This document shows positions 1-59,965 of a stretch of 64,000 bases of DNA, one piece after another (the stretch's first letter is position 1; each line of letters opens with the position of its first letter). The notes below the pieces were generated by a model, which worked only from the letters and a program-made list of their open reading frames with translations, did no database searches and was not told where the DNA came from. A program made the translations under genes and the position numbers. The stretch is from an uncultured Chloroflexia bacterium (GTDB lineage Bacteria > Chloroflexota > Limnocylindria > Limnocylindrales > CSP1-4): NCBI GenBank assembly GCA_963814115.1, contig CAWFBS010000008.1, positions 430,155 through 494,154 of the forward strand, given 5' to 3'.

Positions 1-2160
1 GACGTGCTGGGCGGGATCGGTCGGCGGGAGATCCGTGTCCATCGCGTGGAGACTCCGTCGGCGACCCCCATGGCCTCGTCCCTCCTGTTCGACTACGTCG
101 CCGCCTACATGTACGAGGGTGACGCGCCGCTGGCCGAGCGCAGGGCCCAGGCCCTCGCGCTCGACCGGGACCTCCTCCGCGAGCTGCTTGGCCAGGAGGA
201 GCTTCGCGAGCTCCTGGACCCGGCTGCGCTCGACGAGACGGAGGAGGGCCTGCAGGCACGGACCGACGAGCGGAAGGCGGGCTCGGTCGACCAGGTCGCC
301 GACCTCCTGCGTCGTCTCGGCGATCTTGGGGAGGACGAGGTGGCGGCTCGGACCCGGGGCGGCCCACCCGCCGCGCACGAATGGCTGGAGGCGCTCGCCG
401 GGGCCCGCCGCGCCATCGCCGTGCGGATCGCCGGCGTGCCGCGCTGGATCGCGGTGGAGGACGCCGGCCGTTACCGCGATGCCACGGGCGCCCAGCCGCC
501 CCCGGGGACGCCCGTCGCCTTCCTCGGGGCAACCCACGACGCGCTGGGGGGCCTGCTTGCGCGCTATGCCCGCACCCACGGTCCGTTCCTGGCGGCCGAG
601 CCGGCCCGTCGCTGGGGGCTGCCGGTGGGCATCGTGGACGAGGCGCTCGCCCGCCTGGGCGACGCCGGGACGATCCTCCTCGGCGAGTTCCGGCCTGGCG
701 GCGCCGAGCGCGAGTGGTGTGACCCGGGGGTGCTCCGAGTCCTCCGGCGCCGGTCGCTGGCACGCCTGCGGCGAGAGGTCGAGGCTGTCGACGCAACCGC
801 GTTCGCCCGGTTCCTGCCCGCCTGGCAGGGCGTCTCGCCCGTGCCTGCTCCCGGGACGGAGCATCCGGCGCTGCTCCGCGGCCAGGCCGCCCTGGAACGG
901 CTCGCCGAGGTCGTTGACCAGCTGGCGGGCGTCCCGATCCCGGCTTCGGTCCTGGAGCGGGATGTTCTCCCTGCGCGCGTCCCCGGCTACCAGCCGCGCC
1001 TGCTCGATGAGCTCGGCTCCCTCGGCGAGGTCGCCTGGATCGGCTGTGGGTCGCTCGGTCGTGACGACGGCCGGGTCGCGCTGTTCCGCCCCGGCAGAAG
1101 CGACGGACTTCGCGCGTTGCTGGCGACGTCCCGGGAGGTCACGGGAGACCAGGCCGCGGAGCCCCGTCGGGCCGCCATTCGCGAGCTCCTGGCGCGCCGC
1201 GGCGCCTCGTTCTACCGGGAGATCTTCGCCGCGGCGGGAGGCGGCACAGACCGCGAGGTGCTGGACGCCCTCTGGGACCTGGTCTGGGCAGGCGAAGTGA
1301 CGAACGACACGTTCGCGCCGCTCCGGGCGCTCCGCTGGAAGCGTCCCGGCGGCGATCGGCGCCCGCGGCCGGGACGGCTCGCCACGCTGGGACCGCCGGA
1401 GGCCGCCGGCCGCTGGTCGCGCGTGGAGGCAGGCGCGGAAGCCGGTGGGGGAGCCAGGCCCACAACCGCGCCGGTCGCCGATGGAGCCGCCGCATCCGGC
1501 GCGACGCGGCGGCTCCACGCGCTGGCGCTCGCCCTGCTGGACCGCCACGGCGTCCTGACCCGCGAGGCGGTGCTTGCCGAGGGCATCGAGGGTGGCTTCG
1601 CGGCGATCTACCCGGTCCTGCGGGCGCTCGAGGAAGCCGGTCGGATCCGCCGTGGCTACTTCGTCGATGGGCTGGGTGCGGCCCAGTTCGCGCTGGCCGG
1701 GGCGATCGACCGCCTCCGCGGGGTCCGCGACCCGGAGGCTGCCGCGTCGCGCGTCGACCTGCTGGCGGCAGCCGATCCCGCTCAGCCCTACGGCGCCGCG
1801 CTGGCGTGGCCCCGCCGTGCCGCATCGGATCGCCGTCCGGTCCAACGGGCGGCGGGCGCGTACGTGGCGCTGGTGGGCGGGGCGCCCGTCGTCTACCTCG
1901 AGCGCGGCGGTCGCGGCCTCGTGACGTTCCCCGCGGCCGACGACCCCGACCTCCTCGCCGCGGCGCTCGCCGCGCTCCGGATGCTCGTGGTGGACGGCCG
2001 CCTGCGAGAGCTCGTCGTGAGCCGCGTGGATGGCGACCCGGTCGGCCCCGCCAGCCCGTGGGCCGAGCGCCTGGCCGTGGGCGGCTTCTCGGCCGGCTAC
2101 CGCGGGATGGTGCTCCGCGTGCCGGGCGCGGGCCGGGCGGACGCACGTGCCCGAGGGTGA
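1..2160 (+). CDS. lhr: ATP-dependent helicase Lhr, C-terminal ~718 aa (5'-truncated by window edge)
   Basis: Long ORF in frame from the window start with no start codon, about 718 aa. Ala/Arg-rich C-terminal domain architecture like the Lhr-CTD. Immediately followed by an Fpg/Nei glycosylase gene with a start/stop overlap, the same synteny as mycobacterial lhr-nei2. Confidence 0.6.
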   Translation, partial: DVLGGIGRREIRVHRVETPSATPMASSLLFDYVAAYMYEGDAPLAERRAQALALDRDLLRELLGQEELRELLDPAALDETEEGLQARTDERKAGSVDQVADLLRRLGDLGEDEVAARTRGGPPAAHEWLEALAGARRAIAVRIAGVPRWIAVEDAGRYRDATGAQPPPGTPVAFLGATHDALGGLLARYARTHGPFLAAEPARRWGLPVGIVDEALARLGDAGTILLGEFRPGGAEREWCDPGVLRVLRRRSLARLRREVEAVDATAFARFLPAWQGVSPVPAPGTEHPALLRGQAALERLAEVVDQLAGVPIPASVLERDVLPARVPGYQPRLLDELGSLGEVAWIGCGSLGRDDGRVALFRPGRSDGLRALLATSREVTGDQAAEPRRAAIRELLARRGASFYREIFAAAGGGTDREVLDALWDLVWAGEVTNDTFAPLRALRWKRPGGDRRPRPGRLATLGPPEAAGRWSRVEAGAEAGGGARPTTAPVADGAAASGATRRLHALALALLDRHGVLTREAVLAEGIEGGFAAIYPVLRALEEAGRIRRGYFVDGLGAAQFALAGAIDRLRGVRDPEAAASRVDLLAAADPAQPYGAALAWPRRAASDRRPVQRAAGAYVALVGGAPVVYLERGGRGLVTFPAADDPDLLAAALAALRMLVVDGRLRELVVSRVDGDPVGPASPWAERLAVGGFSAGYRGMVLRVPGAGRADARARG

Positions 2161-37182: not shown

Positions 37183-37596
37183 ATGGCCGAGGGTCAGACC
37201 AGCGCACGCGGGGGCGGGCCACACACGTTCCACATGCTGGCAGCCGAGCGGTGGGCGGTGTGGCGCGATGGGCCGCCGAATGCCCTGTATGAGCCGGAGG
37301 GCTTTGCGGCCGACGGGTTCGTGCATTGCACGGACGGTGCCGGCCAGACGGTCGCAACGGCGAACCGGCACTACCGCTCGGATCCACGGCCGTTCGTCGT
37401 GCTGGAGTTGGACCTCGGCGCGGTGGGCGCGCCGTGGCGCTACGAGGATGCCAACCGCCGCTACCCGCACATCTACGGGCCGCTCCGCCGCGCCTGCGTC
37501 CGGTCCGTCGCGCCGCTTCTTCGCGCAGCGGACGGGAGCTTCACCGCGTTCGGCGGGGCATCGATTGTCGGCCCGGATGCGCCTTCCGTTCTTTGA
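37183..37596 (+). CDS. DUF952 family protein
   Basis: 137 aa. SD-like GGGGGA before the ATG. Pattern (HMLAAERW...GFVHCTDG...) resembles DUF952. Confidence 0.5.
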   Translation: MAEGQTSARGGGPHTFHMLAAERWAVWRDGPPNALYEPEGFAADGFVHCTDGAGQTVATANRHYRSDPRPFVVLELDLGAVGAPWRYEDANRRYPHIYGPLRRACVRSVAPLLRAADGSFTAFGGASIVGPDAPSVL

Positions 37597-37741
37597 CACC
37601 CCCACGGGCGGGGGCTATCATCCGCACCCGACCGGACTTCGGGCGCGCTCGCCGCGGGGCACCGCCCGGGGTTCTTCCGTTTGTGCCACGCCACCTGCCG
37701 GGAGGATCGACCCGCCCGGTCGTCAGAGGTTCGAACCCTCC

Positions 37742-38206
37742 GTGAACAGCAAGCCAACCTATCTGTCTCGCGAGGGCGAGTCCGGCCTCCGTCAGGAGCT
37801 CGACACCCTCGTCAACGTCCGCCGCGCAGAGGTTGCCGCTCGCATCCACGACGCGAAGCAGCATGGCGACCTCTCGGAGAACGCAGAGTACGAAGAGGCG
37901 AAGAACGAGCAGGCGTTCGTCGAGGGCCGGATCCAGACCCTGGAAGCCATGCTCAAGACCGCGGTGATCATCGAGAACTCGGGCTCGGATCACGCGGCGC
38001 TGGGCTCGACCGTGGTCGTGGAGAGCGTTGACGGATCGGAGACCTTCTCGATCGTGGGCTCTGCCGAGGCCCGCCCTGCCGACGGCAAGATCTCGAACGA
38101 GTCGCCCGTCGGGCGAGCCCTCCTTGGCCGCGCCGCGGGTGACCGGATCACGGTCCGACTCCCGAACGGGACCGACGTCACGTACACGATCACGAAGATC
38201 AGCTGA
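37742..38206 (+). CDS. greA: Transcription elongation factor GreA
   Basis: N-terminal coiled-coil with the acidic DLSENAEY tip motif and C-terminal FKBP-like domain. 154 aa, GTG start. Confidence 0.9.
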   Translation: MNSKPTYLSREGESGLRQELDTLVNVRRAEVAARIHDAKQHGDLSENAEYEEAKNEQAFVEGRIQTLEAMLKTAVIIENSGSDHAALGSTVVVESVDGSETFSIVGSAEARPADGKISNESPVGRALLGRAAGDRITVRLPNGTDVTYTITKIS

Positions 38207-38282
38207 GCGCGCGCCCCGCGACGCCGGGACGCACGGCCGGTGCGGCCCCCGCCCGGCGATCGAAAGGCCAGGGACGCACGCA

Positions 38283-39944
38283 ATGTACTGGGCTGACGAG
38301 CTGGCCGCGGCGGCCGAGGGACCGCAGGTCGTCAACGACTCGAAGACGCCCTCGGGGACCGTCCACGTCGGGAGTCTTCGCGGCCCCGTCATCCTCGACG
38401 TCATCACCCGGGCCCTGCGCGATCGCGGCGTCCCGACGACGCTGCTCTACGGTGTCGACGACATGGACCCGATGGATGCCCAGGCCCTCCTGACGCCAGA
38501 CGCCGTGGAGCGGGAGATGGGCCGTCCGCTATCCCGGGTGGCCGACCAGGTCGGCGACTGCCATGCCTCCTACGCTCGCCACCACGCCCAGATCTTCATC
38601 GACATCTTCGATGGTCTCGGCATTCGTCCTGATCGCTACTACTGGATGAGCGACATCTACCCATCCGGCGCGCTCGATCCGTTCATCCGGACCGCCCTCG
38701 ATCGCGCGGACATCGTCCGGGACCTCTACCGGCGCATTTCCAGGGTGGAGCGGCCGGCCGGCTGGCTCCCGATCAGCGTCATCTGCCCCGCCTGTGGCAA
38801 GGTCGGGACGACGCTCGCCCGGGACTGGGACGGCGCGACGGTGGCGTTCGAGTGTTTGCCCGACTACGTCACCTGGGCCAGCGGCTGCGGGACGACCGGT
38901 CGGCTTGCGCCGTTCGGGGGCGCCGCGAAGCTGCCCTGGAACCTGGAATGGGCAGCCCAATGGTCGCTCTTCGGCGTGACGATCGAGCCATGCGGCAAGG
39001 ACCTCGCCACCGCGGGCGGCTCGCGCGATCGCTCCGACGCGCTGGCCCGCGAGGTATTTGACCGGGAGCCCCCGCGCAACCTGGCCTACGAGTTCCTGAA
39101 CATCGGCGGGCGCAAGATGTCGACGAGCAAGGGACGCGGTGCCGCCGCCCACGAGATCGTCGAGGTCCTGCCGGCGGAGCAGCTCCGGTTGCTCTTCCTC
39201 CGACCCCGACCGAACCAGGTCATCGAGTTCGATCCGGACGGCACGGACGCGGTCCCGCGTGTGTTCGATGAGTTCGACCGGCTGGCGGCTGCCGCCGGCG
39301 GCCGAGAGGTCAAGGGCGAGCTTCCCGCCGACGCCGGTCGGATCTTCCGCTACGCGCTCCTGGATCCAACCGCGGACGTCGCCGCGGAGGCGGTGCGCTA
39401 TCGGCCGGCGTTCGCGCACCTCGCGCTGCTGGCGCAGATCCCCGGCGTGGACGTCGCCGAACGGGTGACGGCGGAGAAGGGGAGCGCCCTGACCCTCGCG
39501 GAGCGCCGGATCCTCGAGGAACGGCTGGTTGCCGTCGACGGCTGGTTGGAGTCCTACGCGCCGGAGCGGGCCCGGATCGAGATCCGGCGCGACGCGCTCC
39601 CGCCGGAGGCCGCGGCCCTGGGCGAGGACCAGCGAGCCTGGCTCGGCGCGTTTGCCCGCGCGGCAAAGGCGACGCTGCCATCGTCCGGCGACGCGTGGCA
39701 AGCGCTGATCTTCGCGGTTGCCGAGGCGGCAGCGCTCCCTGCGGGCCGTGCCTTCGGTGCCCTCTACGTGGCGTTCCTGGGCCGGACCAACGGACCGCGC
39801 GCCGGTTGGCTGCTGGCCAGCCTGGAGCCCGTCTTCGTGGTGGAGCGATTGCGGGCCGCGGCAGGTTGGCGCGATCTTCCGGATGGCGAGCAGGGCGCTG
39901 CCGGCGGGACCGGCGGCCGCGACACGACGGAGGCGGTGGGATGA
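38283..39944 (+). CDS. lysK: Lysine--tRNA ligase, class I (archaeal-type LysK)
   Basis: Class I Rossmann signatures: HIGH-type HVGS near the N-terminus and KMSKS-type KMSTSKG, in the order and spacing of class I LysRS. Zinc-binding Cys cluster (CPACG...C). 553 aa. Confidence 0.75.
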   Translation: MYWADELAAAAEGPQVVNDSKTPSGTVHVGSLRGPVILDVITRALRDRGVPTTLLYGVDDMDPMDAQALLTPDAVEREMGRPLSRVADQVGDCHASYARHHAQIFIDIFDGLGIRPDRYYWMSDIYPSGALDPFIRTALDRADIVRDLYRRISRVERPAGWLPISVICPACGKVGTTLARDWDGATVAFECLPDYVTWASGCGTTGRLAPFGGAAKLPWNLEWAAQWSLFGVTIEPCGKDLATAGGSRDRSDALAREVFDREPPRNLAYEFLNIGGRKMSTSKGRGAAAHEIVEVLPAEQLRLLFLRPRPNQVIEFDPDGTDAVPRVFDEFDRLAAAAGGREVKGELPADAGRIFRYALLDPTADVAAEAVRYRPAFAHLALLAQIPGVDVAERVTAEKGSALTLAERRILEERLVAVDGWLESYAPERARIEIRRDALPPEAAALGEDQRAWLGAFARAAKATLPSSGDAWQALIFAVAEAAALPAGRAFGALYVAFLGRTNGPRAGWLLASLEPVFVVERLRAAAGWRDLPDGEQGAAGGTGGRDTTEAVG

Positions 39945-41281
39945 GCGTCGGCGTGCAACGGCTGCGAGACGAGCCCGATCTCATCCGAAAGGGCGCGATC
40001 GACAAGGGCGAGGACGCGACGCTCGTGGACACGGCCGTCGCGCTCGACGCGCGCCGGCGGGCGCTCCTCGGCGAGGCGGACGCGCTCAAGGCCGAGCGCA
40101 ACATGGCCTCGCGGCAGGTCGGTGATGCGATCAAGGCCGGCGCCGCGCCCGCCGGCCCGGAGGTCGCGGCATTGCGCGCCGCGTCCGTTGCCGCGGGCGA
40201 GCGGATCGCCACCCTCGACGTCGAGATCGGCCGCGTCGAGGCCGAGCTGGAGGACGCGCTCCTGCGCATCCCGAACCCGGCCGACCCCGACGTGCCGATC
40301 GGCGACGCCGACGCGAGCGTGACGGTCCGTACCTGGGGCGAGCGACTCCCGCGGTCGGTGGCCGCGGCGGAGGCCGGGGGCCCGGACGCCGCCGCACCGG
40401 CCTGGGAGCGCCGGCCCCACTGGGACGTCGCTGAGCGCCTTGGCATCTTCGAGCTCGAGCGCGGCGCCAAGATCGCGGGCTCCGGCTTTCCCGTCTACCG
40501 CGGGGCCGGGGCAGGGCTGCAGCGCGCCCTGATCGACTTCTTCCTGGGCGTCCACACGCGCGAGAACGGATTCACCGAGATCTGGCCGCCCGCCGTCGTC
40601 AACGCCGCGTCCGCGCGGGGCACGGGCCAGATCCCGGACAAGGAAGACCAGATGTACGTCGTGACGCGCGACGAGCTCTACCTGGTCCCGACGGCCGAGG
40701 TGCCGGTCACGAACCTCCACCGCGGCGAGATCTTCGAGGCCGGCGAGCTGCCCGTCCGCTACGCGGCGTACTCACCCTGCTTCCGCCGGGAGGCCGGTGC
40801 GGCGGGCAAGGACACCCGCGGGATCCTGCGCGTCCACCAGTTCGACAAGGTCGAGATGGTGCTCTTCGAGACACCCGAGGCGTCCGCCGAGGCGCTCGAG
40901 TGGATGGTGGGCCGGGCCGAGGATCTCCTGCGCCGCCTCGGGCTGGCCTACCGCGTGCTCCTCATGGCGACCCGCGACATGGGGTTCGTGCAGGCCAAGA
41001 AGTACGACCTGGAGGTCTGGGCGCCCGGCGTGGAGCGCTGGCTGGAGGTCTCCTCCTGCTCGAACTTCCGGGACTACCAGGCGCGCCGGATGGCGATCCG
41101 CTACCGCCCGGCGCCGGGGGCGCGGCCTGAGCTGGTCCACACGCTGAACGGGTCGGGCCTCGCGCTTCCCCGGGTCGTCGCGTCGATCCTGGAGACGTAC
41201 CAGGAGGCGGACGGCAGTGTCCGCGTCCCGGAGCCGCTCCGGGTCTCGCTCGGGACGGACCGGCTGCGCCCACCGGCCTGA
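39941..41281 (+). CDS. serS: Serine--tRNA ligase
   Basis: N-terminal coiled-coil arm plus class II core motifs (e.g. FRRE, GSGLALPR). ATGA overlap with the lysK stop. Confidence 0.9.
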   Translation: MSVGVQRLRDEPDLIRKGAIDKGEDATLVDTAVALDARRRALLGEADALKAERNMASRQVGDAIKAGAAPAGPEVAALRAASVAAGERIATLDVEIGRVEAELEDALLRIPNPADPDVPIGDADASVTVRTWGERLPRSVAAAEAGGPDAAAPAWERRPHWDVAERLGIFELERGAKIAGSGFPVYRGAGAGLQRALIDFFLGVHTRENGFTEIWPPAVVNAASARGTGQIPDKEDQMYVVTRDELYLVPTAEVPVTNLHRGEIFEAGELPVRYAAYSPCFRREAGAAGKDTRGILRVHQFDKVEMVLFETPEASAEALEWMVGRAEDLLRRLGLAYRVLLMATRDMGFVQAKKYDLEVWAPGVERWLEVSSCSNFRDYQARRMAIRYRPAPGARPELVHTLNGSGLALPRVVASILETYQEADGSVRVPEPLRVSLGTDRLRPPA

Positions 41282-41525
41282 CCGCTGCCGCGCCGGTCGG
41301 AGCGCGCAGACCCCCGCGGCCGGTCTCACCATCCCGGCGGCTGGTCTCGTTGCCCCGGCCAGGATGCGCATCCCGCCCGATTCCCGGGCGCGCAAGCGGC
41401 GTGTACGATCTCCGCCTGATGCAACGGAGCGCCGGACCGAGTCCTCGACGTTCACCACCGGATCCGGTGGAAGCGCAGCGTGGGCATGGTGCGGGAGGTC
41501 CGGGCTTGAGCCGGGACATCCGGTC

Positions 41526-43976
41526 GTGAAGGCGCGCCTGCGGTTCTCCGCGCGCGGCATCGTGATCGCCTACGCTCTGGCCGCCGCGGCGTGGATCGCG
41601 TTCAGCGATCAGGTGGCCGCCGGACTGGCCCCCAGCCAGGACGCGCTCGCAACCATATCTACCCTCAAAGGCTGGGCCTTCGTCGCAGTCACGAGCGCGC
41701 TGCTCGCCGGCCTGCTGTGGGGCTTCGACGACGAGCGTGGCCGCAGGGCCATCGAGCTCGAGCTGCAGGTCGCGGAGCGGGGACGCGCGGAAGCGCACCT
41801 CGAGCGGCTGAATCGAGTGCTCAGAACGCTGAGCCTGGCGAACCAGGCGCTGGTCCGGAGCCTCGAGGAAACCGCCCTGCTGCAGGAGTTCTGTGCGGTC
41901 ATCGTCGAACACGGCGCGTTTCTCGGCGCCTGGGTCGGGTACCGCGAGGATGACGCGGCCGGAACGATCCGGCCGGTTGCCCGGGCCGGCCCCCTGGAGG
42001 GCTACCTCGACGCGATCACGTTGAGCTGGAACGACGCGACCCACGGGAGCCCGGGACCGGCAGGAACGTCCATCCGCGAAGGCCGGACGGTGGTCAGCAT
42101 GGACGCCAGCGCCGACGCGACCCTGGCCTGGCGGGACGAGATGCTCGCCCGGGGCATCCGGTCCCTGGTGGCACTGCCGCTGATGATCGACGACCTGGCG
42201 TTCGCCACGCTCGTGATCTACGCGGGAGATCAGGATGCGTTCGGACCTGACGAGATCGCCCTCCTCGAGGAGCTTGCCGCGGACCTTGCCTATGGCGTAC
42301 GCACCCTGCGCTCCCGGGCCGGTGCCGCGCGCGACACCGCGGCCCGCCATCTCGCCGAGCGCGAGATGCTCCGCCTTGTCACCGCCATCGAGCAGTCCTC
42401 CGATGCGGTCGTGATCACCGACGCGAGCGGTGCGATCGAGTACGTGAACCCAGCCTTCGAGCAGGTGACCGGCTACCCGGCCGGGGAGGCCCTCGGCCAG
42501 AACCCGCGGATCCTCAAGAGCGGCGTGCAGGGACCTGCTTTCTACGCCGCGATGTGGGCCACCCTGGTCAGCGGGCAGTCGTTCGTGGGGGACCTCGTCA
42601 ACCGGCGCAAGGACGGGAGCCTGTTCCAGGAGGAGGCCGTCATCTCGCCGATCCGCGACGAGGCGGGGACGATCACGAGCTACGTGGCTGTCAAGCGCGA
42701 CGTGACCCGCGAGCGCGCCGCGGAAGCCGCCCAGGAGCGAATGGCACGGGAGCGCGCCCTGATCGCCGGGACGCTTGCGGACCTCCAGGGTCTGCCCACG
42801 CCCACGGCGACGGCCGAGGCGATCTGCCGGCAGGTCGTGAGCCTCGCCGGCGCTACGAGCGCCTCGATCTCCTACTTCACCCTCGAGGGCCCGGCCATGC
42901 CGCTCGGCTACGTGCGGGCCGACGGCGTCCCCGTGCAGCTGCGGCGCATCCCCTTCCAACGAAGTCGTACCCTCCGCGAGCGGGCTGAGGAGGGACCATG
43001 GGTTGAGGCTTGGGTCCACCGTCCCTGGCACCCGTACGCGCGACAGCAGATGGAGATCGGCACCAGGGCCCTCGCCTACGCACCCGTCCGCCACCGTGGC
43101 GTGCTCATCGGCGTCCTGACGGTGACGTCGTCCGAAGCGTCGGCCGCAGTCGAGCGGCTTACGGAGACCCTGCCCGCCCTGCTCGAGTTCGCAGGCTTCG
43201 CGGGTGCGCTCATCGGCCCGGCTATCGCGGACCTGACCGAGGCCGGCAGCGCCCAGGAGCGAATTGCCGCGATCATCCGGACCGGCGCGTTCCGACCCGT
43301 CTTCCAGCCGATCGTGGACCTCGTCACCGGTGCCCACGTCGGCTACGAGGCTTTGACCCGCTTTGCCGACGGCGCGGCCCCCGACATCGTGTTCGCCGAC
43401 GCGCGAACAGCCGGCCTCGAGCCGGAGCTGGAGCTCGCGACGCTTGGCGCCGCGATCGCCGCCGCCACCAGGCTGCCGGCCGGTGCATGGCTGAGCCTCA
43501 ACGTGTCACCCGGCCTCCTCACCGGCAGCCGGCGCCTAGGCGGGGTGCTGCGGGCCGCCGACCGCCCCATCGTCCTCGAGGTGACCGAGCACGTCCCCGT
43601 GGACGACTACGCGGCTCTCCGCGCCGCGCTGGGCCGGATCCGCCCCAACGTGCGCGTGGCGGTCGACGACGCGGGGGCGGGCGTGGCCAACTTCGGCCAC
43701 ATCGTCGAGCTGCGGCCTGCCTTCGTGAAGCTCGACATGCGGCTGGTCCGGGGCATCGAAGCGGACCTGACCCGGCAGGCCCTGGTCCTCGGGCTCCTCC
43801 ATTTCGCCAGCGAGGCGGTGAGCCAGACGATCGCAGAGGGCGTCGAGACCGAGGCGGAGCTCGCGACCCTCCGGGGGCTCGGGGTTCCCCTCGCCCAGGG
43901 CTACCTGCTCGGCAGACCGGCGCCGGTGGAGGACTGGGGTTTGCCGACGCAGCCGGGGGCGGCCGGCACGGGTTAA
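41526..43976 (+). CDS. Membrane-anchored PAS/GAF-containing EAL-domain signalling protein (putative c-di-GMP phosphodiesterase)
   Basis: Two N-terminal TM helices and GAF-like and PAS (PAS/PAC) segments. C-terminal EAL domain with QPIVDL, EALTRF and DDAGAG motifs; no GGDEF motif seen. GTG start at 41526 chosen; the upstream in-frame region is Arg/Ser-rich. Confidence 0.7.
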   Translation: MKARLRFSARGIVIAYALAAAAWIAFSDQVAAGLAPSQDALATISTLKGWAFVAVTSALLAGLLWGFDDERGRRAIELELQVAERGRAEAHLERLNRVLRTLSLANQALVRSLEETALLQEFCAVIVEHGAFLGAWVGYREDDAAGTIRPVARAGPLEGYLDAITLSWNDATHGSPGPAGTSIREGRTVVSMDASADATLAWRDEMLARGIRSLVALPLMIDDLAFATLVIYAGDQDAFGPDEIALLEELAADLAYGVRTLRSRAGAARDTAARHLAEREMLRLVTAIEQSSDAVVITDASGAIEYVNPAFEQVTGYPAGEALGQNPRILKSGVQGPAFYAAMWATLVSGQSFVGDLVNRRKDGSLFQEEAVISPIRDEAGTITSYVAVKRDVTRERAAEAAQERMARERALIAGTLADLQGLPTPTATAEAICRQVVSLAGATSASISYFTLEGPAMPLGYVRADGVPVQLRRIPFQRSRTLRERAEEGPWVEAWVHRPWHPYARQQMEIGTRALAYAPVRHRGVLIGVLTVTSSEASAAVERLTETLPALLEFAGFAGALIGPAIADLTEAGSAQERIAAIIRTGAFRPVFQPIVDLVTGAHVGYEALTRFADGAAPDIVFADARTAGLEPELELATLGAAIAAATRLPAGAWLSLNVSPGLLTGSRRLGGVLRAADRPIVLEVTEHVPVDDYAALRAALGRIRPNVRVAVDDAGAGVANFGHIVELRPAFVKLDMRLVRGIEADLTRQALVLGLLHFASEAVSQTIAEGVETEAELATLRGLGVPLAQGYLLGRPAPVEDWGLPTQPGAAGTG

Positions 43977-44275
43977 GGTGGCCGCGCCAGCGGCCGCGGC
44001 GAGGTGCCGGAGCCGGGGGCCGGAGGTGGCTGGACCGCGGCTCCGCGACTCTCCAGACGAGCGTTAACTCGCCGTTGATTAGGACGGCCGCCGTTCGGCC
44101 AATCTTCCCGTCGGGACGGCGGCCCGGCTGGCTCGTCACTCGGGAGGACCGATTGGCGCCTTGTCCTGAGATGGCGGGGTTGCCCGCCTCAGATCCGTAA
44201 GAGGGTCAGCGGGGCTCGCGACTCAGGCCACCCAACCGCTATCGTGTTGCGAATGACAGGAGTCGGGGAAGCGGC

Positions 44276-46774
44276 ATGAACGGCGAGGGCGCGAGCGGAC
44301 GTTGGCGGACAGCCGGGCGCGGCCAGCCCCGGGAGCTCGCGTCGCGGGCTGCGGGGAGAGCCGGCTCGCAAGGCCAGCCCGGGATTCGTGCGCGGAGCGC
44401 GCCGGAGATCCCGCGCTTCCCCGTCGACCCGTGGTGCCTCCGGGAGCAGGGCTTCGATCCGTTGCTCGCCGCGGGCCGCGAGACCATCTTCTCTCTCGGA
44501 AACGGCCACCTCGGCGTTCGCGGAACCCTGGAGGAAGAGGCCGGCAACGTCACGCGCGGCACGTATGTGAACGGCTTCTACGAGACCGTCCCGATCCGCT
44601 ACGGCGAGACCGCCTACGGCTACGCCCGGAACCACCAGGTGATGCTCAACGTGGCCGACGGCACGCTGATCCAGCTCTACGTGGACCAGGAGCCGCTGGA
44701 CCTCACGACGGGCCGTGTCGAGGCGTCCAAGCGCTCGCTCGACATGCGCAGTGGCGTCCTCGAGCGGACCGTCCGGTGGCGCTCGCCGGCCGGACACCTC
44801 GTGGAGGTTTCCTCGCGGCGGATCGTCTGCCTGGCCCGGCCGAGCGTCGCCGCGATCGAATATGACGCCACGATCCTGGAGGGCCGCGGCACCCTCCGCA
44901 TCGCGTCCGCGATCGATGTCCGCGCCCGCCCGGGCGCAACGACGGGAGATCCCAGGGTCGGCCACCCGGTGCCGGAGGGCTCGCTGACGTCGATTCGACG
45001 CGAGGTCAACGGGCCACAGGGTGCCGTCATCCAGCGCACGCGGGGCACTGGCCTCACGATCGCCGTGGCGATGGACCACGCCATCTCCGCGATCGGGCCG
45101 CTGGCCGGCAAGCCGAATTCCGCCTCGCGCGCGACCGCCGACCGCGTGACGTTCGAAGTGAGCGCGGAGGCGAGTTCCGGGACGGGCCTCCGCCTGAGGA
45201 AGATTCTCGCCTACACAACGTCTCTCGATCTCGGCGCGGACGACCCGCTGGCCCGGGCGCGCGCCGATGCCGAGGCGGCCGGAGCGCTCGGCTTCAAGGG
45301 GCTCCTCGCCGAGCAGCGCGCGGAGCTGGACCGGTTCTGGAGCGTCGCCGACGTGGAGGTCGACGGCGACCCGGGCGTTCAGCAGGCGCTCCGTTTCAGC
45401 CTCTTCAGCCTCTTCCAGGCGGCCGGACGCGATGGACGCACGAGCATTCCGGCCAAGGGCCTGACCGGTGAAGGGTACGAAGGGCACTACTTCTGGGACA
45501 CGGAGGTCTTCGCGCTGCCCCTGTTCGCGTACACCCGCCCCGAGATCGCACGGGCGCTGCTCCAGTACCGGGTCCGCACCCTTGACAAGGCACGCGAGCG
45601 CGCAATCGAGATGCGCCAGCGCGGTGCGCTCTATGCCTGGCGGACGATCGGCGGCGAGGAGGCGTCCGCCTACTTCCCAGCCGGAACCGCCCAGTACCAC
45701 ATCGATGCCGACATCGCCGTGGCGTTCGAAAAGTACGTCCACGCGACGGGCGACCGGACGATCCTCACCGAGGGCGGCGCGGAGGTTGTCTTCGAGACCG
45801 CCCGCCTATGGGCGGACCTGGGCGCGTACATCCCGGCCCAGGCGAATGCGTTCTGCATCAATGAGGTCACCGGCCCTGACGAGTACACGGCGCTCGTAAA
45901 CAACAACTGCTACACGAACCTGATGGCCCGGGCCAACCTCCGGTACGCGGTCGCGCTGGCGGAACGGATGTCCCAGGACGACCCGTCGTTCTATCGGGAG
46001 CTCGCCGCCCGGATCGGGCTCGACGAGGACGAGGTGGTGCTCTGGCGTCGGGCCGCCGAGCGGATGCGAGTCCCCCGCGACGAGGCGCTGGGGATCCACG
46101 TCCAGGACGACACGTTCCTGACCCGCGAGGTCTGGGATTTCGCCGGGACGCCACGAGCCGAGTACCCGCTGCTGCTCCACGTCCACCCGCTGGTGATCTA
46201 TCGCTATCAGGTCCTCAAGCAGCCCGACGTCGTGCTGGCGCAGGTGCTGCTCGGCGCCGAGTTCACGCCCGCAGAGAAGAAGCGCAACTTCGACTACTAC
46301 GACCCGCTGACGACCGGCAATTCGTCGCTCTCGCCCTGCATCCAAAGCGTCGCGGCGGCCGAGCTCGGCTACGGGGACCTGGCCTACGCGTATTTCCAGC
46401 GCACGGTGCGGATGGACCTCGACGATGTCAACGGCAATGTCGCCGACGGCATCCACCTCGCCGCCATGGCCGGCTCGTGGATCGCCGTCGTCTTCGGGTT
46501 CGCCGGGTTCCGCGACGACGGCGGACGCACCGACTTCGCTCCGCGACCTCCGGATCCCTGGCGGCGGCTCCGTTTCCGGATGCTGATTCGCGGCTCGCTC
46601 CTGCTAGTCACGATCACCAGCCGTCACGTCGTCTACGAGCTGCTGTCCGGCCCCGACCTTGCAATCCGGCACTTCGGCCGCGCCGTGGTCCTGAGGGCCG
46701 GCCGACCAATGAAACGGTCGCTCGAGCGGCCCGCCGGTCAGATCCGGGCCCCACTCCCGCCTGGGGAGCCATAG
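44276..46774 (+). CDS. Glycoside hydrolase family 65 disaccharide phosphorylase (maltose/trehalose/kojibiose phosphorylase-like)
   Basis: N-terminal beta-sandwich (FSLGNGHLGVRG), (alpha/alpha)6 catalytic domain (general acid region GEGYEGHYFWDTE) and C-terminal beta-sandwich. Confidence 0.85.
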   Translation: MNGEGASGRWRTAGRGQPRELASRAAGRAGSQGQPGIRARSAPEIPRFPVDPWCLREQGFDPLLAAGRETIFSLGNGHLGVRGTLEEEAGNVTRGTYVNGFYETVPIRYGETAYGYARNHQVMLNVADGTLIQLYVDQEPLDLTTGRVEASKRSLDMRSGVLERTVRWRSPAGHLVEVSSRRIVCLARPSVAAIEYDATILEGRGTLRIASAIDVRARPGATTGDPRVGHPVPEGSLTSIRREVNGPQGAVIQRTRGTGLTIAVAMDHAISAIGPLAGKPNSASRATADRVTFEVSAEASSGTGLRLRKILAYTTSLDLGADDPLARARADAEAAGALGFKGLLAEQRAELDRFWSVADVEVDGDPGVQQALRFSLFSLFQAAGRDGRTSIPAKGLTGEGYEGHYFWDTEVFALPLFAYTRPEIARALLQYRVRTLDKARERAIEMRQRGALYAWRTIGGEEASAYFPAGTAQYHIDADIAVAFEKYVHATGDRTILTEGGAEVVFETARLWADLGAYIPAQANAFCINEVTGPDEYTALVNNNCYTNLMARANLRYAVALAERMSQDDPSFYRELAARIGLDEDEVVLWRRAAERMRVPRDEALGIHVQDDTFLTREVWDFAGTPRAEYPLLLHVHPLVIYRYQVLKQPDVVLAQVLLGAEFTPAEKKRNFDYYDPLTTGNSSLSPCIQSVAAAELGYGDLAYAYFQRTVRMDLDDVNGNVADGIHLAAMAGSWIAVVFGFAGFRDDGGRTDFAPRPPDPWRRLRFRMLIRGSLLLVTITSRHVVYELLSGPDLAIRHFGRAVVLRAGRPMKRSLERPAGQIRAPLPPGEP

Positions 46775-46927
46775 GCCCGCACGGCGTCGACCGCGTCGAC
46801 GGCGCCTCCTTCTCGCGCTACCATGCATATCGGAGCGGCCCCATGAGAGAGCGACGGCAAAGCCCCCCGACATGTCGAAGGTTGTGACCGGCGCACCGCA
46901 CCCAACGCCACCACGCGGTCCAATGCA

Positions 46928-47308
46928 ATGAAGCCCTCGGATGAGCGCCCCGAGATCGCGTTGCCGCGTGACCCGCTGCCGGGCGGCTCGACGGGCCCTT
47001 CGTGCACGGATTCCGGGTGGCTCGTGACGTTCACCGGTCCGACTCCGGAGCAGGAACCCTCGGTCGGAGGCATCCGGCCCGCCGCCGACGCCCTCCTCGT
47101 GGACCCGCACATCCCCGAGGCCTGGGGCGAGGTCAGGATCCCTGTGTCGTTCCGAGGTCGCCGGGTTGTCGTCCAGGTGCAGGGCGACCTCCTGCAGGTG
47201 CGCGCCCGGCCGGAAGCGCCCGTTTGCGTCGGCGGCGGCATGCCGGTCGAGAGCGGGCCGCGCGGCCGCCGCTTCCGTCGGTCGAGCGACGAATGGCTGT
47301 CGGCATGA
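46928..47308 (+). pseudogene. Remnant ORF resembling a second GH65 C-terminal beta-sandwich domain
   Basis: 126-aa ORF in the 518-bp gap between the GH65 and pgmB genes. The segment SGWLVTFTG...DPHIPEAWGEVRIPVSFRGRRVVVQVQGDLLQV aligns by eye with the GH65 C-terminus of the upstream gene (GSWIAVVFG...PPDPWRRLRFRMLIRGSLLLVTITSRHVVYEL). Confidence 0.3.
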
Positions 47309-48096
47309 AGCACGGGGGAGCGTTCCCCGGCCCTGGGTTCGACGCGGTCATCTTCGACATGGACGGCGTCGTCACCCAGACTGCGCTGGTCCACGCGGCG
47401 GCCTGGAAGCGCCTCTTCGACGAGTACCTCAGCGATCGCGCGGCCCGGACCGGCGTCCCGTTCGTCCCGTTCGACGCCGAGGCGGACTATCGGCCGTACA
47501 TCGACGGGATGCCGCGCTACGACGGCGTGCGGCGGTTCCTGGCCTCACGGGATATCTCGCTGCCCGAGGGAACTCCAACCGACCCGCCCGCCGCGGAGAC
47601 GGTCTGCGGCCTCGGGAACCGCAAGAACGGGTTCTTCCTGGCCGTCGTTGCCCGGGACGGCGTCCTCCCGTTCCCGACGACGGTCGCCCTCGTGCGGTCC
47701 CTTCGCGAGCGCGGGCTGGGCACGGCCATCATCTCGGCAAGCGAGAACGCTACGGCCATCTTGTCCGCTGCCGGCGTCCTGGGCCTGTTCGACGTGCAGG
47801 TCGACGGGATGGATGCCTCCCGCCTGGGCCTGGCCGGAAAGCCCGATCCGGCAATCTTCCTCGAGGCCGCCCGGCGCCTTGGCGTCCCGCCCGGCCGCGC
47901 CGTGGTCGTCGAAGATGCGCTGGCCGGCGTGGAGGCCGGACGGCGCGGCAGGTTCGGGCTGGTGGTGGGAGTCGACCGAGCGGGGCTCCGCGACGAGCTC
48001 GCCGCGCGCGGGGCCGACGTCGTCGTGAGCGATCTCGGTGAGCTGCCGATCGCCCCGGCGCCCGGCGGCACCGGCCGGGAGTCGAGGCCGCGCTAG
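47293..48096 (+). CDS. pgmB: Beta-phosphoglucomutase (HAD superfamily)
   Basis: HAD motif I DxDGV (VIFDMDGVV), motif II S/T and motif III K. Partner gene of GH65 phosphorylases. Confidence 0.8.
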   Translation: MAVGMKHGGAFPGPGFDAVIFDMDGVVTQTALVHAAAWKRLFDEYLSDRAARTGVPFVPFDAEADYRPYIDGMPRYDGVRRFLASRDISLPEGTPTDPPAAETVCGLGNRKNGFFLAVVARDGVLPFPTTVALVRSLRERGLGTAIISASENATAILSAAGVLGLFDVQVDGMDASRLGLAGKPDPAIFLEAARRLGVPPGRAVVVEDALAGVEAGRRGRFGLVVGVDRAGLRDELAARGADVVVSDLGELPIAPAPGGTGRESRPR

Positions 48097-48356
48097 GCGT
48101 GCGAACTGACTACCCTCCCGAGGGCAGAGTGCCAGCACCGTCTTGAGGGCACCCTGCGGGTGACCACGGAGGTGAAATCAGGGCGAACTGCCGCGGCCGA
48201 CCGTTGATGTCCGGTGGCAGATCCTGACGCCGGCGCTCCGGTCAGACTTCTCTCGCTCGCCGCCGACGACGACTGGTACCCTTCCTCCCGAGCGGGTTCG
48301 TGTGCGTGGCCCCCGACGCAAAGGATGTTGCGTCAGGTGACCGCCCTCGACAACGC

Positions 48357-48442
48357 GGAGAGGTGCCGGAGCGGTCTATCGGAGCGGTCTTGAAAACCGC
48401 CGGGTGCAAGCCCCGTGGGTTCGAATCCCACCCTCTCCGCCA
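48357..48442 (+). tRNA. tRNA-Ser (anticodon UGA), class II with long variable arm, CCA encoded
   Basis: Manual fold. Acceptor GGAGAGG/CCTCTCC, 3-bp D-stem, anticodon stem GCGGT/ACCGC with loop CTTGAAA (anticodon TGA), long variable arm, T-arm GTGGG-TTCGAAT-CCCAC, discriminator G, CCA. Confidence 0.85.

Positions 48443-53618: not shown

Positions 53619-53622
<4 letters not shown>
52561..53622 (+). CDS. trpD: Anthranilate phosphoribosyltransferase
   Basis: [16 protein letters not shown] and KHGNRA motifs. ATGA overlap with trpG. Confidence 0.9.
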
Positions 53623-56476
<2,854 letters not shown>

Positions 56477-56480
<4 letters not shown>

Positions 56481-57781: not shown

Positions 57782-58286
57782 CGGACGCCTCGGTGCCGCC
57801 GGCCCTCGCCGGGATGAGGCCCGACGTCCGTCGGCGGGCCAGCTCCTCCAGTGCGAGCGTGTAGCCCCGGGCGTGCAGGCCCACGAAGCGGGCGATCGCC
57901 ACGTCCTCCAGGAAGTTCACCCGCCGGAACGGCTCGCGAGCGGCCGGGTCCGAGAGGTGCACCTCGACGAACGGGCGTTCCACGGCCAGCAGGGCGTCGC
58001 GCAGGCTGACCGAGGTGTGGGTGAGTCCGGCTGCGTTCACGATCGCGGCGTCGAAATCGAGCTCGTGGAGCCGGTCGATGAGCGCCCCCTCGTGGTTCGA
58101 CTGGAAGAAATCCACGTGCACGCCGAGCTCCGACGCCCGCGCCGCGATCCCCGCATTGATCTGGTCGAGCGTCTCGCGCCCGTAGATGGCCGGCTCCCGC
58201 CTTCCCAGCAGGTTCAGGTTCGGGCCGTTCAGCACCAGCACGCGGAACGGGCGATCTGCCCCCATCGGCGACACAGTCCCGCTCAT
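57774..58286 (-). CDS. aroQ: 3-dehydroquinate dehydratase, type II
   Basis: VLVLNGPNLNLLGRREPAIYG and HLSD motifs of type II DHQase. ATGA overlap with the aroKB stop. Confidence 0.85.
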   Translation of the reverse strand: MSGTVSPMGADRPFRVLVLNGPNLNLLGRREPAIYGRETLDQINAGIAARASELGVHVDFFQSNHEGALIDRLHELDFDAAIVNAAGLTHTSVSLRDALLAVERPFVEVHLSDPAAREPFRRVNFLEDVAIARFVGLHARGYTLALEELARRRTSGLIPARAGGTEASGG

Positions 58287-59965
58287 GCGCCGGACCCATC
58301 CGCGTGCGCTGCTGCGCCCGAGGGGACGGCGGCGCCGGCGCCCGCCGGTCTGCCGGCCAGGACGCTCCGTGCCGCCGCAGTCACCACCTCGGCAGGGATG
58401 TCCGTGCGAACCGTCCACCCGCCCGCGGTCGCGAGGACCCACCGGAGCTGCCCGGCGTGGTGCTTCTTGTCCGCGGCGAGCGCCTCGAGGACCGCGCCAA
58501 TCGGGGTCGAGAGGGGTGCCAGGGCAAGCTCCAGCCGGTCCAGAAGCCGCTCCACCCGGTCCGCCCGCTCGGGCGGCGTCACCTCCATCGCCACCCCGAT
58601 CCGGAGGGCCGCCCGCAGCCCATAGGCCACGGCCTCTCCGTGGAGGATGCCCCGGAATCCCGCCGCCGTCTCGATCGCGTGGCCGAGCGAGTGGCCGAGG
58701 TTCAGCGAGATCCGGCCACCCTGCTCGCGCTCATCGGCGGTGACGACCTCCACCTTGGCCATGGCGCAGCGCTCGACGAGCTCTGCCATCGCGCCGGACT
58801 CGAAGGCGGCGGGGGCACCCGCCGCAAGGGCCGGCCCGTCGACCTCCAGGAGATCCAGGATCCGCTCGTCGCCCAGCGTCCCCATCTTGGTTGCCTCGCC
58901 CAGCGCGGCGCGCAGCTCACGAGGTTCCAGCGTTCGCAGGAAGGCGATGTCCGTGACGTTTGCGACCGCTTGGTGGAAGGCGCCCACAAGGTTCTTGCCC
59001 TCGGGCAGGTCGACGGCGCTCTTGCCACCGATCGAGCTGTCCAGCTGGGCGACGAGGGTTGTCGGCACCTGAACCAGCGGCACGCCGCGCAGCCAGATCG
59101 CCGCGAGGAACCCGGCCGCGTCGCCGAGCGCTCCGCCGCCGATCGCGACGATCGGGTCGGTCCGTTCGGCGTGCAGGTTGGCGAGCTGGCGAGCCGCCTC
59201 CTCGATCACCCCGAGGCGCTTGGCGTCCTCGCCGCGCGGAAGCAGGATCAGCTCGGTCGGGATTCCGGCCGCGCCAACTGCCTCGGAGATGGCGGCCCCG
59301 GCCGACTCCCAGGCGCGCGGCTCCGAAACGAGGAACGCACGGCGCGCTTCCAGGCTCTCGAGCGCGCCCACGACGCCGGACCCGCCCGTGCCGTCGCCCA
59401 GCTCGTAGCGGCCGAGCGGCGTGGCAGCCCGCAGGAGCGGTGTCCGCGGAATCGGATCGGCAAGGTGACGTTCCAGTGTCTCCACGATCCCGGCCAGGCC
59501 GACGATCCCGTTCACGCGCAGCGCCGGCGCGTAGAAGGGCGTCCGGGTTGCTGCAAGCAGTCGCATCGCGGCGACCGGGTCGTGACCGCTCAGCAGGGGC
59601 CGCGGCACGGGTGAGTTGCGGAGGCGCTGGGCGAGGATCTCCGGCGGGGCGTCGAGCCAGGCGGCCATCCGGCCGCGATAGAGGAGCCATCGGTTGCGTG
59701 GGTCGATGGGTGCGCCGCCCCCCGTCGCGATCACCCGCGTCAGGCCGGTCCGGGGGTCCCCGGGTCCGAGGCTGCGGATGGCGCGGCGCTCCCGCGCGCG
59801 GAAGCCCGCCTCGCCCTCCTCGGCGAAGATCGACGGGATGGGGCGCCCGGCGTCGCGCTCGATCTCCTCGTCCAGGTCCACGAACGTCGCCCCGTGGCGG
59901 CGCGACAGGCGGCGACCGACAGCGGTCTTGCCGCTCCCGGGCAACCCGACGAGGACCAGGTCCAT
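58283..59965 (-). CDS. aroKB: Bifunctional shikimate kinase / 3-dehydroquinate synthase (AroK-AroB fusion)
   Basis: N-terminal 170 aa are shikimate kinase (LVGLPGSGKT P-loop). The remainder is DHQ synthase (GGGALGDAAGF, zinc/NAD-binding motifs, SLNLGHSLGHAIE). Confidence 0.85.
   Translation of the reverse strand: MDLVLVGLPGSGKTAVGRRLSRRHGATFVDLDEEIERDAGRPIPSIFAEEGEAGFRARERRAIRSLGPGDPRTGLTRVIATGGGAPIDPRNRWLLYRGRMAAWLDAPPEILAQRLRNSPVPRPLLSGHDPVAAMRLLAATRTPFYAPALRVNGIVGLAGIVETLERHLADPIPRTPLLRAATPLGRYELGDGTGGSGVVGALESLEARRAFLVSEPRAWESAGAAISEAVGAAGIPTELILLPRGEDAKRLGVIEEAARQLANLHAERTDPIVAIGGGALGDAAGFLAAIWLRGVPLVQVPTTLVAQLDSSIGGKSAVDLPEGKNLVGAFHQAVANVTDIAFLRTLEPRELRAALGEATKMGTLGDERILDLLEVDGPALAAGAPAAFESGAMAELVERCAMAKVEVVTADEREQGGRISLNLGHSLGHAIETAAGFRGILHGEAVAYGLRAALRIGVAMEVTPPERADRVERLLDRLELALAPLSTPIGAVLEALAADKKHHAGQLRWVLATAGGWTVRTDIPAEVVTAAARSVLAGRPAGAGAAVPSGAAAHADGSGA

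Follow-up and report, generated by a model that had tools for sequence, protein, structure and literature searches.

Class I lysyl-tRNA synthetase in a conserved greA-lysK-serS arrangement of Limnocylindria-type Chloroflexota

Does a class I lysyl-tRNA synthetase (LysRS) in a bacterium carry out routine charging of tRNA-Lys, or is it an auxiliary enzyme or a recent arrival? This question is raised by lysK, a gene in a 64-kb piece of the chromosome of a Limnocylindria-type Chloroflexota, a stretch that we refer to as the window and whose positions supply all coordinates below unless a related locus is named. Bacterial class I LysRS is generally attributed to horizontal transfer (PMC7373986; PMC1475646), and the enzyme needs tRNA to activate lysine (review PMC7373986). 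A survey of >2500 prokaryotic genomes found only class I LysRS in 377, only class II in 2143 and both in 39, most of which came from the B. cereus group and from Streptomyces (PMC5388404); cited examples of organisms with both classes are B. cereus, Methanosarcina and Nitrosococcus (PMC2916919; PMC7373986). Class I is the sole LysRS in spirochaetes such as Borrelia and Treponema, in alphaproteobacteria and in others (PMC2916919; PMC5388404; PMC7373986). We find that lysK is very probably the housekeeping LysRS of the Limnocylindria-type Chloroflexota, situated in a greA-lysK-serS unit.

The lysK product belongs to the class I LysRS family, as the initial annotation had claimed and as profile searches and a structural homologue bear out. 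The protein scored 296.3 bits against NCBIfam TIGR00467 (lysS_arch, an equivalog model with a cutoff of 147.55), with residues 2-525 covering model positions 2-513 of 515, and 248.8 bits (E=1e-73) against Pfam PF01921 (tRNA-synt_1f), for which the cutoff is 27. The only match of solved structure found by sequence was the class I LysRS of P. horikoshii, 1IRX_A (E=4e-59), to which residues 13-525 aligned over 1IRX positions 20-521. Sequence comparison with this enzyme revealed the same full-length order, from a Rossmann domain with the HIGH and KMSKS motifs to a C-terminal anticodon-binding region; the window LysRS differs from it in its only moderate identity (204 bits), in reading GKDL for GKDH and in its C-terminal tail. 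This tail of 25-30 residues is Gly/Ala-rich and variable in sequence, and carries the ribosome-binding site of serS. An exact-sequence look-up of the window LysRS returned no record, and close homologues were used instead. Database homologues 74-92% identical to it bear the names 'lysyl-tRNA synthetase class 1' or 'lysine--tRNA ligase' and derive, where a taxon is given, from metagenome-assembled genomes (MAGs) of Candidatus Limnocylindrales or Chloroflexota. The identity of lysK as a class I LysRS gene is thus already annotated in close homologues.

The lysK open reading frame (ORF) runs from an ATG at 38283, giving a protein that starts MYWADELAAAA, to a TGA at 39942-39944. The serS ORF follows from an ATG at 39941 to position 41281 and encodes a seryl-tRNA synthetase (SerRS) that begins MSVGVQRLRDEPDL. 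Both start codons match the N-termini of homologues, and the interval 38283-41281, as originally delimited, spans lysK start to serS stop exactly. The SerRS scored 428 bits against TIGR00414 (cutoff 301.65), with PF02403 matching residues 6-112 (the N-terminal coiled-coil arm) and PF00587 residues 243-420 (the class II core).

Both signature motifs reported at the outset, HVGS and KMSTSKG, are present in the translation and stand in register with those of 1IRX. Across the clade (n=85) the HIGH-type motif reads HVGS in 79 sequences, HIGS in five and HLGS in one, and KMSTSK is kept in 76. The Cys residues of a CxxC...C...C segment (C168, C171, C191 and C202) are conserved across bacterial relatives. 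At 59 of 61 family-conserved columns the clade holds the commonest residue of the family, and the only clade-fixed departure among these columns is GKDL, found in 85/85 clade sequences. A library clustered at 50% identity contained 1846 clusters matching LysRS at E<=1e-3; among the full-length cluster representatives (n=103), the GKDH column holds His in 82 and Leu in 18, each of the latter at least 41% identical to the window LysRS. We take the His of GKDH (His240 of 1IRX) to pack against the lysine side chain, and a Leu at this position could preserve hydrophobic packing. The strong purifying selection on lysK, described below, argues for a functional enzyme despite the GKDL change. The lysK product would be placed among Rossmann-fold class I enzymes that activate lysine in a tRNA-dependent manner and charge tRNA-Lys, and no observation in the window points away from this tRNA dependence.

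The distribution of the gene was examined by a scan of species-representative genomes in which a 9-sequence alignment served as the query. The best 80 of at least 549 stretches with relatives were 67-92% identical and all fell in the same clade; almost all are labelled as MAGs of Chloroflexota, Chloroflexia or Limnocylindria, the few exceptions being binned under other names, and several of the contigs are 1-2.9 Mb long. In every one of the related loci that were fetched (84/84), lysK directly follows greA and is in turn followed by serS. One MAG (MFD04716.bin.3.469) contains two different greA-lysK-serS loci, L022 and L041, the contigs being 125 kb and 1.4 Mb long. Since the doubling extends to greA and serS, it probably stems from a mixed bin rather than from paralogy of lysK.

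The composition and divergence of lysK are those of its surroundings. Its GC content is 71.4%, with a GC fraction at third codon positions (GC3) of 0.87, compared with means of 71.6% and 0.89 (standard deviation 0.03) for the 52 genes called in the window. Relative to the four closest relatives, the ratio of nonsynonymous to synonymous divergence (dN/dS) is 0.11-0.13 for lysK, 0.12-0.14 for serS and 0.07-0.14 for greA, and lysK is thus under strong purifying selection. The synonymous divergence (dS) is similar across the three genes, which argues that they diverged together. We conclude that lysK is inherited across the whole Limnocylindria lineage, Chloroflexota of soil and freshwater, and shows no sign of being a recent or otherwise special arrival.

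The nearest full-length LysRS sequences outside the clade are 35-47% identical, and include a ~45% relative from Aggregatilineales, another order of Chloroflexota, and a ~39% relative from a Gracilibacteria genome. The Aggregatilineales-type lysK has unrelated neighbour genes. A sister cluster that is 45% identical has the upstream greA but lacks serS on the other side, and greA-lysK-serS with the start/stop overlap was seen only in the Limnocylindria-type clade. The sister-group protein (L089 2495-4111, P0130 cluster) has a degenerate HIGH motif, VPIS for VHVG, and five additional residues in its KMSKS loop (KMSTSRPEQWQG), and could represent a diverged enzyme or a non-canonical one. The Aggregatilineales LysRS P0132 (L086 5001-7322, L087 2468-4789) is 773 amino acids long, and its C-terminal extension matches B3_4 (PF03483), a domain known from the beta subunit of phenylalanyl-tRNA synthetase.

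Direct reading of the DNA, which at the junction is GGAGGCGGTGGGATGAGC, confirmed that the lysK stop overlaps the serS ATG, as first described. A 4-nucleotide (nt) overlap of the form [A/G]TGA (ATGA or GTGA) occurs in 68/84 related loci. Among the non-overlapping loci, a few separate lysK from serS by 1-79 nt, and in two, L017 and L026, ~0.8 kb of inserted DNA between the genes breaks the overlap. In the six remaining outliers stop-finding read through, which we put down to frameshifts in the assembly or to a tblastn match whose end lay in the wrong frame. A Shine-Dalgarno-like 4-mer is present at -18 to -5 of serS in 60/84 related loci, compared with 16% of control 15-mers inside lysK. These features suggest that serS translation is probably coupled to lysK termination: ribosomes ending at the lysK UGA would restart at the overlapping AUG and so provide part of SerRS synthesis, aided by the GGAGG that precedes the serS start by 7 nt.

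The proposal of a two-synthetase operon stands as regards the pairing of lysK with serS, whereas the unit itself probably comprises three genes, greA-lysK-serS. The end of the candidate promoter's -10 hexamer lies ~120 nt from the greA start codon, and a TTG[AC][CA]N-16..18-TANNNT site is found ~150 nt upstream of greA in 77/81 related loci. Between promoter and gene, the predicted leader hairpin has an energy z-score that is unremarkable in this GC-rich DNA, but it is kept across 34 aligned loci, with compensatory changes in 4/8 consensus pairs. No Rfam model matched the hairpin. Together with the U-rich tract it could form a leader terminator or attenuator that controls greA-lysK-serS, and it resembles the E. 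coli greA leader. The spacer between greA and lysK is near-identical among close relatives, is no more stably folded than shuffled sequence (z = -1.0) and yielded no terminator-like site; nor was a T box, riboswitch or any other Rfam element found near lysK. Conservation of the promoter-like site and of the leader hairpin ahead of greA, and the lack of a terminator between greA and lysK, suggest that the three genes are probably a single transcription unit, which would be transcribed from the conserved promoter past the leader hairpin. The coordinates of these features are collected in Table 1.

Table 1. Positions of the greA-lysK-serS genes, their signals and motifs, and the nearby tRNA-Ser gene in the window
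Feature	Coordinates	Strand	Basis or remark
Sigma-70-like promoter candidate, TTGACA-17 nt-TATCAT	37593..37621	+	11/12 consensus positions
Candidate leader hairpin (37634-37674), then U-rich tract (37675-37685)	37634..37685	+	Centroid fold, 12+4 bp stem
greA, transcription elongation factor, first gene of unit	37742..38206	+	PF03449, PF01272
greA-lysK spacer, 76 nt	38207..38282	+	No terminator-like site
lysK, class I lysyl-tRNA synthetase, 553 amino acids	38283..39944	+	TIGR00467, PF01921, 1IRX_A alignment
HIGH-type signature HVGS, residues 28-31	38364..38375	+	Aligns with HVGN of P. horikoshii LysRS
GKDL, residues 238-241, His-to-Leu relative to GKDH	38994..39005	+	L241 aligns with His240 of 1IRX
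KMSKS-type signature KMSTSKG, residues 278-284	39114..39134	+	Aligns with KMSGSKG of 1IRX
Shine-Dalgarno-like GGAGG for serS, in last lysK codons	39929..39933	+	Read directly
ATGA, serS start overlapping lysK stop	39941..39944	+	Read directly; ATG 39941-39943, TGA 39942-39944
serS, bacterial-type class II seryl-tRNA synthetase, 446 amino acids	39941..41281	+	TIGR00414, PF02403, PF00587
tRNA-Ser(UGA)	48357..48442	+	ARAGORN, Rfam; ~7 kb downstream of serS

A search of the 64-kb window with E. coli LysS (tblastn) detected no class II LysRS, the best match having E=3. No tRNA-Lys gene was present in the window or in the fetched loci; features of the tRNA-Lys acceptor stem are said to favour recognition by class I LysRS. 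Given the host-like composition, the dN/dS values, the lack of a T box, the rarity of dual-class genomes and the lack of a class II gene in the 64 kb, a housekeeping and vertically inherited LysRS is by far the best reading of lysK. Three points weigh against it or against its parts. The absence of class II lysS covers 64 kb only, and a second, class II gene may lie elsewhere in the genome. In the GKDH motif, the clade has Leu in place of the His found in nearly all class I LysRS outside it. Lastly, 4-nt overlaps join 14/40 same-strand neighbouring gene pairs in the window (by our own gene calls), and an arrangement this common need not mean a functional link between LysRS and SerRS.

Two kinds of bacterial precedent help to place the gene. 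Like the spirochaetes and alphaproteobacteria with class I as their sole LysRS, the window organism appears to have class I in place of class II LysS, and its lysK has no special regulatory leader of its own; it differs from them in its lineage, Limnocylindria, and in the conserved greA-lysK-serS arrangement, and lysK is only presumably the sole LysRS gene of its genome. The lysK of B. cereus is likewise a class I LysRS gene in a bacterium, but one that coexists with class II LysS, has its own T-box leader and control, and is expressed in stationary phase (PMC2916919). Unlike that extra gene, which is found in few strains, the lysK of the window has no T box, is clade-wide and lies inside a unit of core genes.

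The alternative that survives best, which we nonetheless regard as unlikely, is that lysK encodes an auxiliary or specialised LysRS beside a class II enzyme that serves bulk translation. Precedents for such a role are the LysRS1 that B. cereus has in stationary phase and the resistance to lysine analogues obtained by employing a second enzyme; the survey cited above does include 39 genomes with both classes (PMC5388404), and the clade-fixed GKDL could mark an altered active site. Dual-class genomes are, however, a minority (39 compared with 377 having class I only), and neither a T box nor any Rfam element accompanies lysK as it does the extra gene of B. cereus. The position of lysK between two core genes, the same in 84/84 loci, and a dN/dS equal to that of the essential serS also speak against a specialised role, as does the lack of a class II LysRS in the window. 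The specialised function that the initial annotation had made conditional on a class II gene elsewhere gains no support from the window or the related loci.

Also unlikely, and ranked just below the auxiliary enzyme, is a group of more far-reaching possibilities: that GKDL reshapes the lysine pocket and confers a different substrate discrimination (for example, against lysine analogues), that lysK works beside an undetected class II enzyme, or that the deeply conserved lysK-serS overlap reflects a need to make both synthetases in a fixed ratio or a physical complex of LysRS with SerRS.

That the protein is not a LysRS at all is very improbable, whether it is imagined as a paralogue from another class I synthetase family (GluRS, GlnRS, MetRS or CysRS) or as a dead pseudo-synthetase. 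Weak, partial matches to MetRS, CysRS and ArgRS around the KMSKS region, and the replacement of GKDH by GKDL, could be read in its favour. These Met, Cys and Arg matches reach 14-29 bits, where the NCBIfam cutoffs are 336-587 bits, and although the PF09334 MetRS match of 28.5 bits passes its Pfam cutoff of 20.1 bits, it is confined to residues 265-311. The LysRS model, by contrast, is covered from end to end at a score above its cutoff, the HIGH and KMSKS motifs are intact, 59/61 conserved columns are kept and purifying selection is strong. A GluRS or GlnRS paralogue, the outcome that the initial annotation had named as contradicting its assignment, was rejected, there being no GluRS or GlnRS model hit in Pfam or NCBIfam at E<=0.01.

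Least probable of all is a recent horizontal acquisition of an 'archaeal-type' lysK by this organism, which the usual ascription of bacterial class I LysRS to transfer (PMC7373986; PMC1475646) and the 35-47% identity of the nearest full-length relatives outside the clade might suggest, but which is opposed by a composition matching the host, by the retention of the gene and its neighbours in at least 80 species-level genomes with a divergence that tracks serS and greA, and by the class I LysRS of Aggregatilineales at ~45% identity. The patchy horizontal transfer invoked at first thus holds as a general attribution for bacteria in the literature and does not extend to a recent event here, where 84/84 loci agree, composition is host-like and dN/dS is neighbour-like. 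Any transfer of lysK would predate the clade, since its composition is host-like, its neighbours are conserved and Aggregatilineales also carry a class I LysRS.

The housekeeping reading of lysK also finds the gene in an ordinary setting, as the window is ordinary core chromosome with a GC content of 72% overall and a uniform 68-76% per 2 kb. Upstream of lysK lie genes for an Lhr helicase, MFS transporters, glutamate dehydrogenase, a pantothenate/CoA cluster and an ABC transporter; further genes on this side encode NDK, an H+-pyrophosphatase, UppP, ArgR, a DUF952 protein and GreA, after which come lysK and serS. Downstream of serS follow genes for a GAF-PAS-EAL protein, a GH65 phosphorylase and a HAD hydrolase, then tRNA-Ser, the trp operon and shikimate genes. 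A tRNA-Ser(UGA) gene is found in the fetched flank downstream of serS in 41/84 related loci, often <100 nt from serS. In the window the GAF-PAS-EAL gene (41526-43976), the GH65 glycoside phosphorylase gene (44462-46774) and the HAD hydrolase gene (47293-48096) intervene, and in the 92%-identical relative L001 a different gene follows that for the EAL protein. The stretch from serS to tRNA-Ser (41282-48442) looks like a variable insertion region.

Two fused genes were observed farther downstream. At 53619-56480 (+), one 953-amino-acid ORF joins IGPS (TrpC), PRAI (TrpF) and a PALP domain (TrpB-like), and appears to be a three-domain fusion within the trp operon, the genes of which are chained by 4-nt overlaps. 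At 58283-59965 (-), a shikimate kinase/3-dehydroquinate synthase fusion (AroK-AroB, 560 amino acids) is part of a shikimate-pathway cluster.

The importance of these results beyond correct annotation is slight. The GKDH-to-GKDL change offers a cheap mutagenesis target for the study of lysine recognition by class I LysRS. For the family, lysK is a small data point indicating that a bacterial class I LysRS can be a long-standing enzyme passed on vertically in its lineage, and is not in every case a recent transfer. For the organism and its relatives, it means that a large and mostly uncultured class of Chloroflexota very probably uses class I LysRS, with lysK stably linked to greA and serS throughout.

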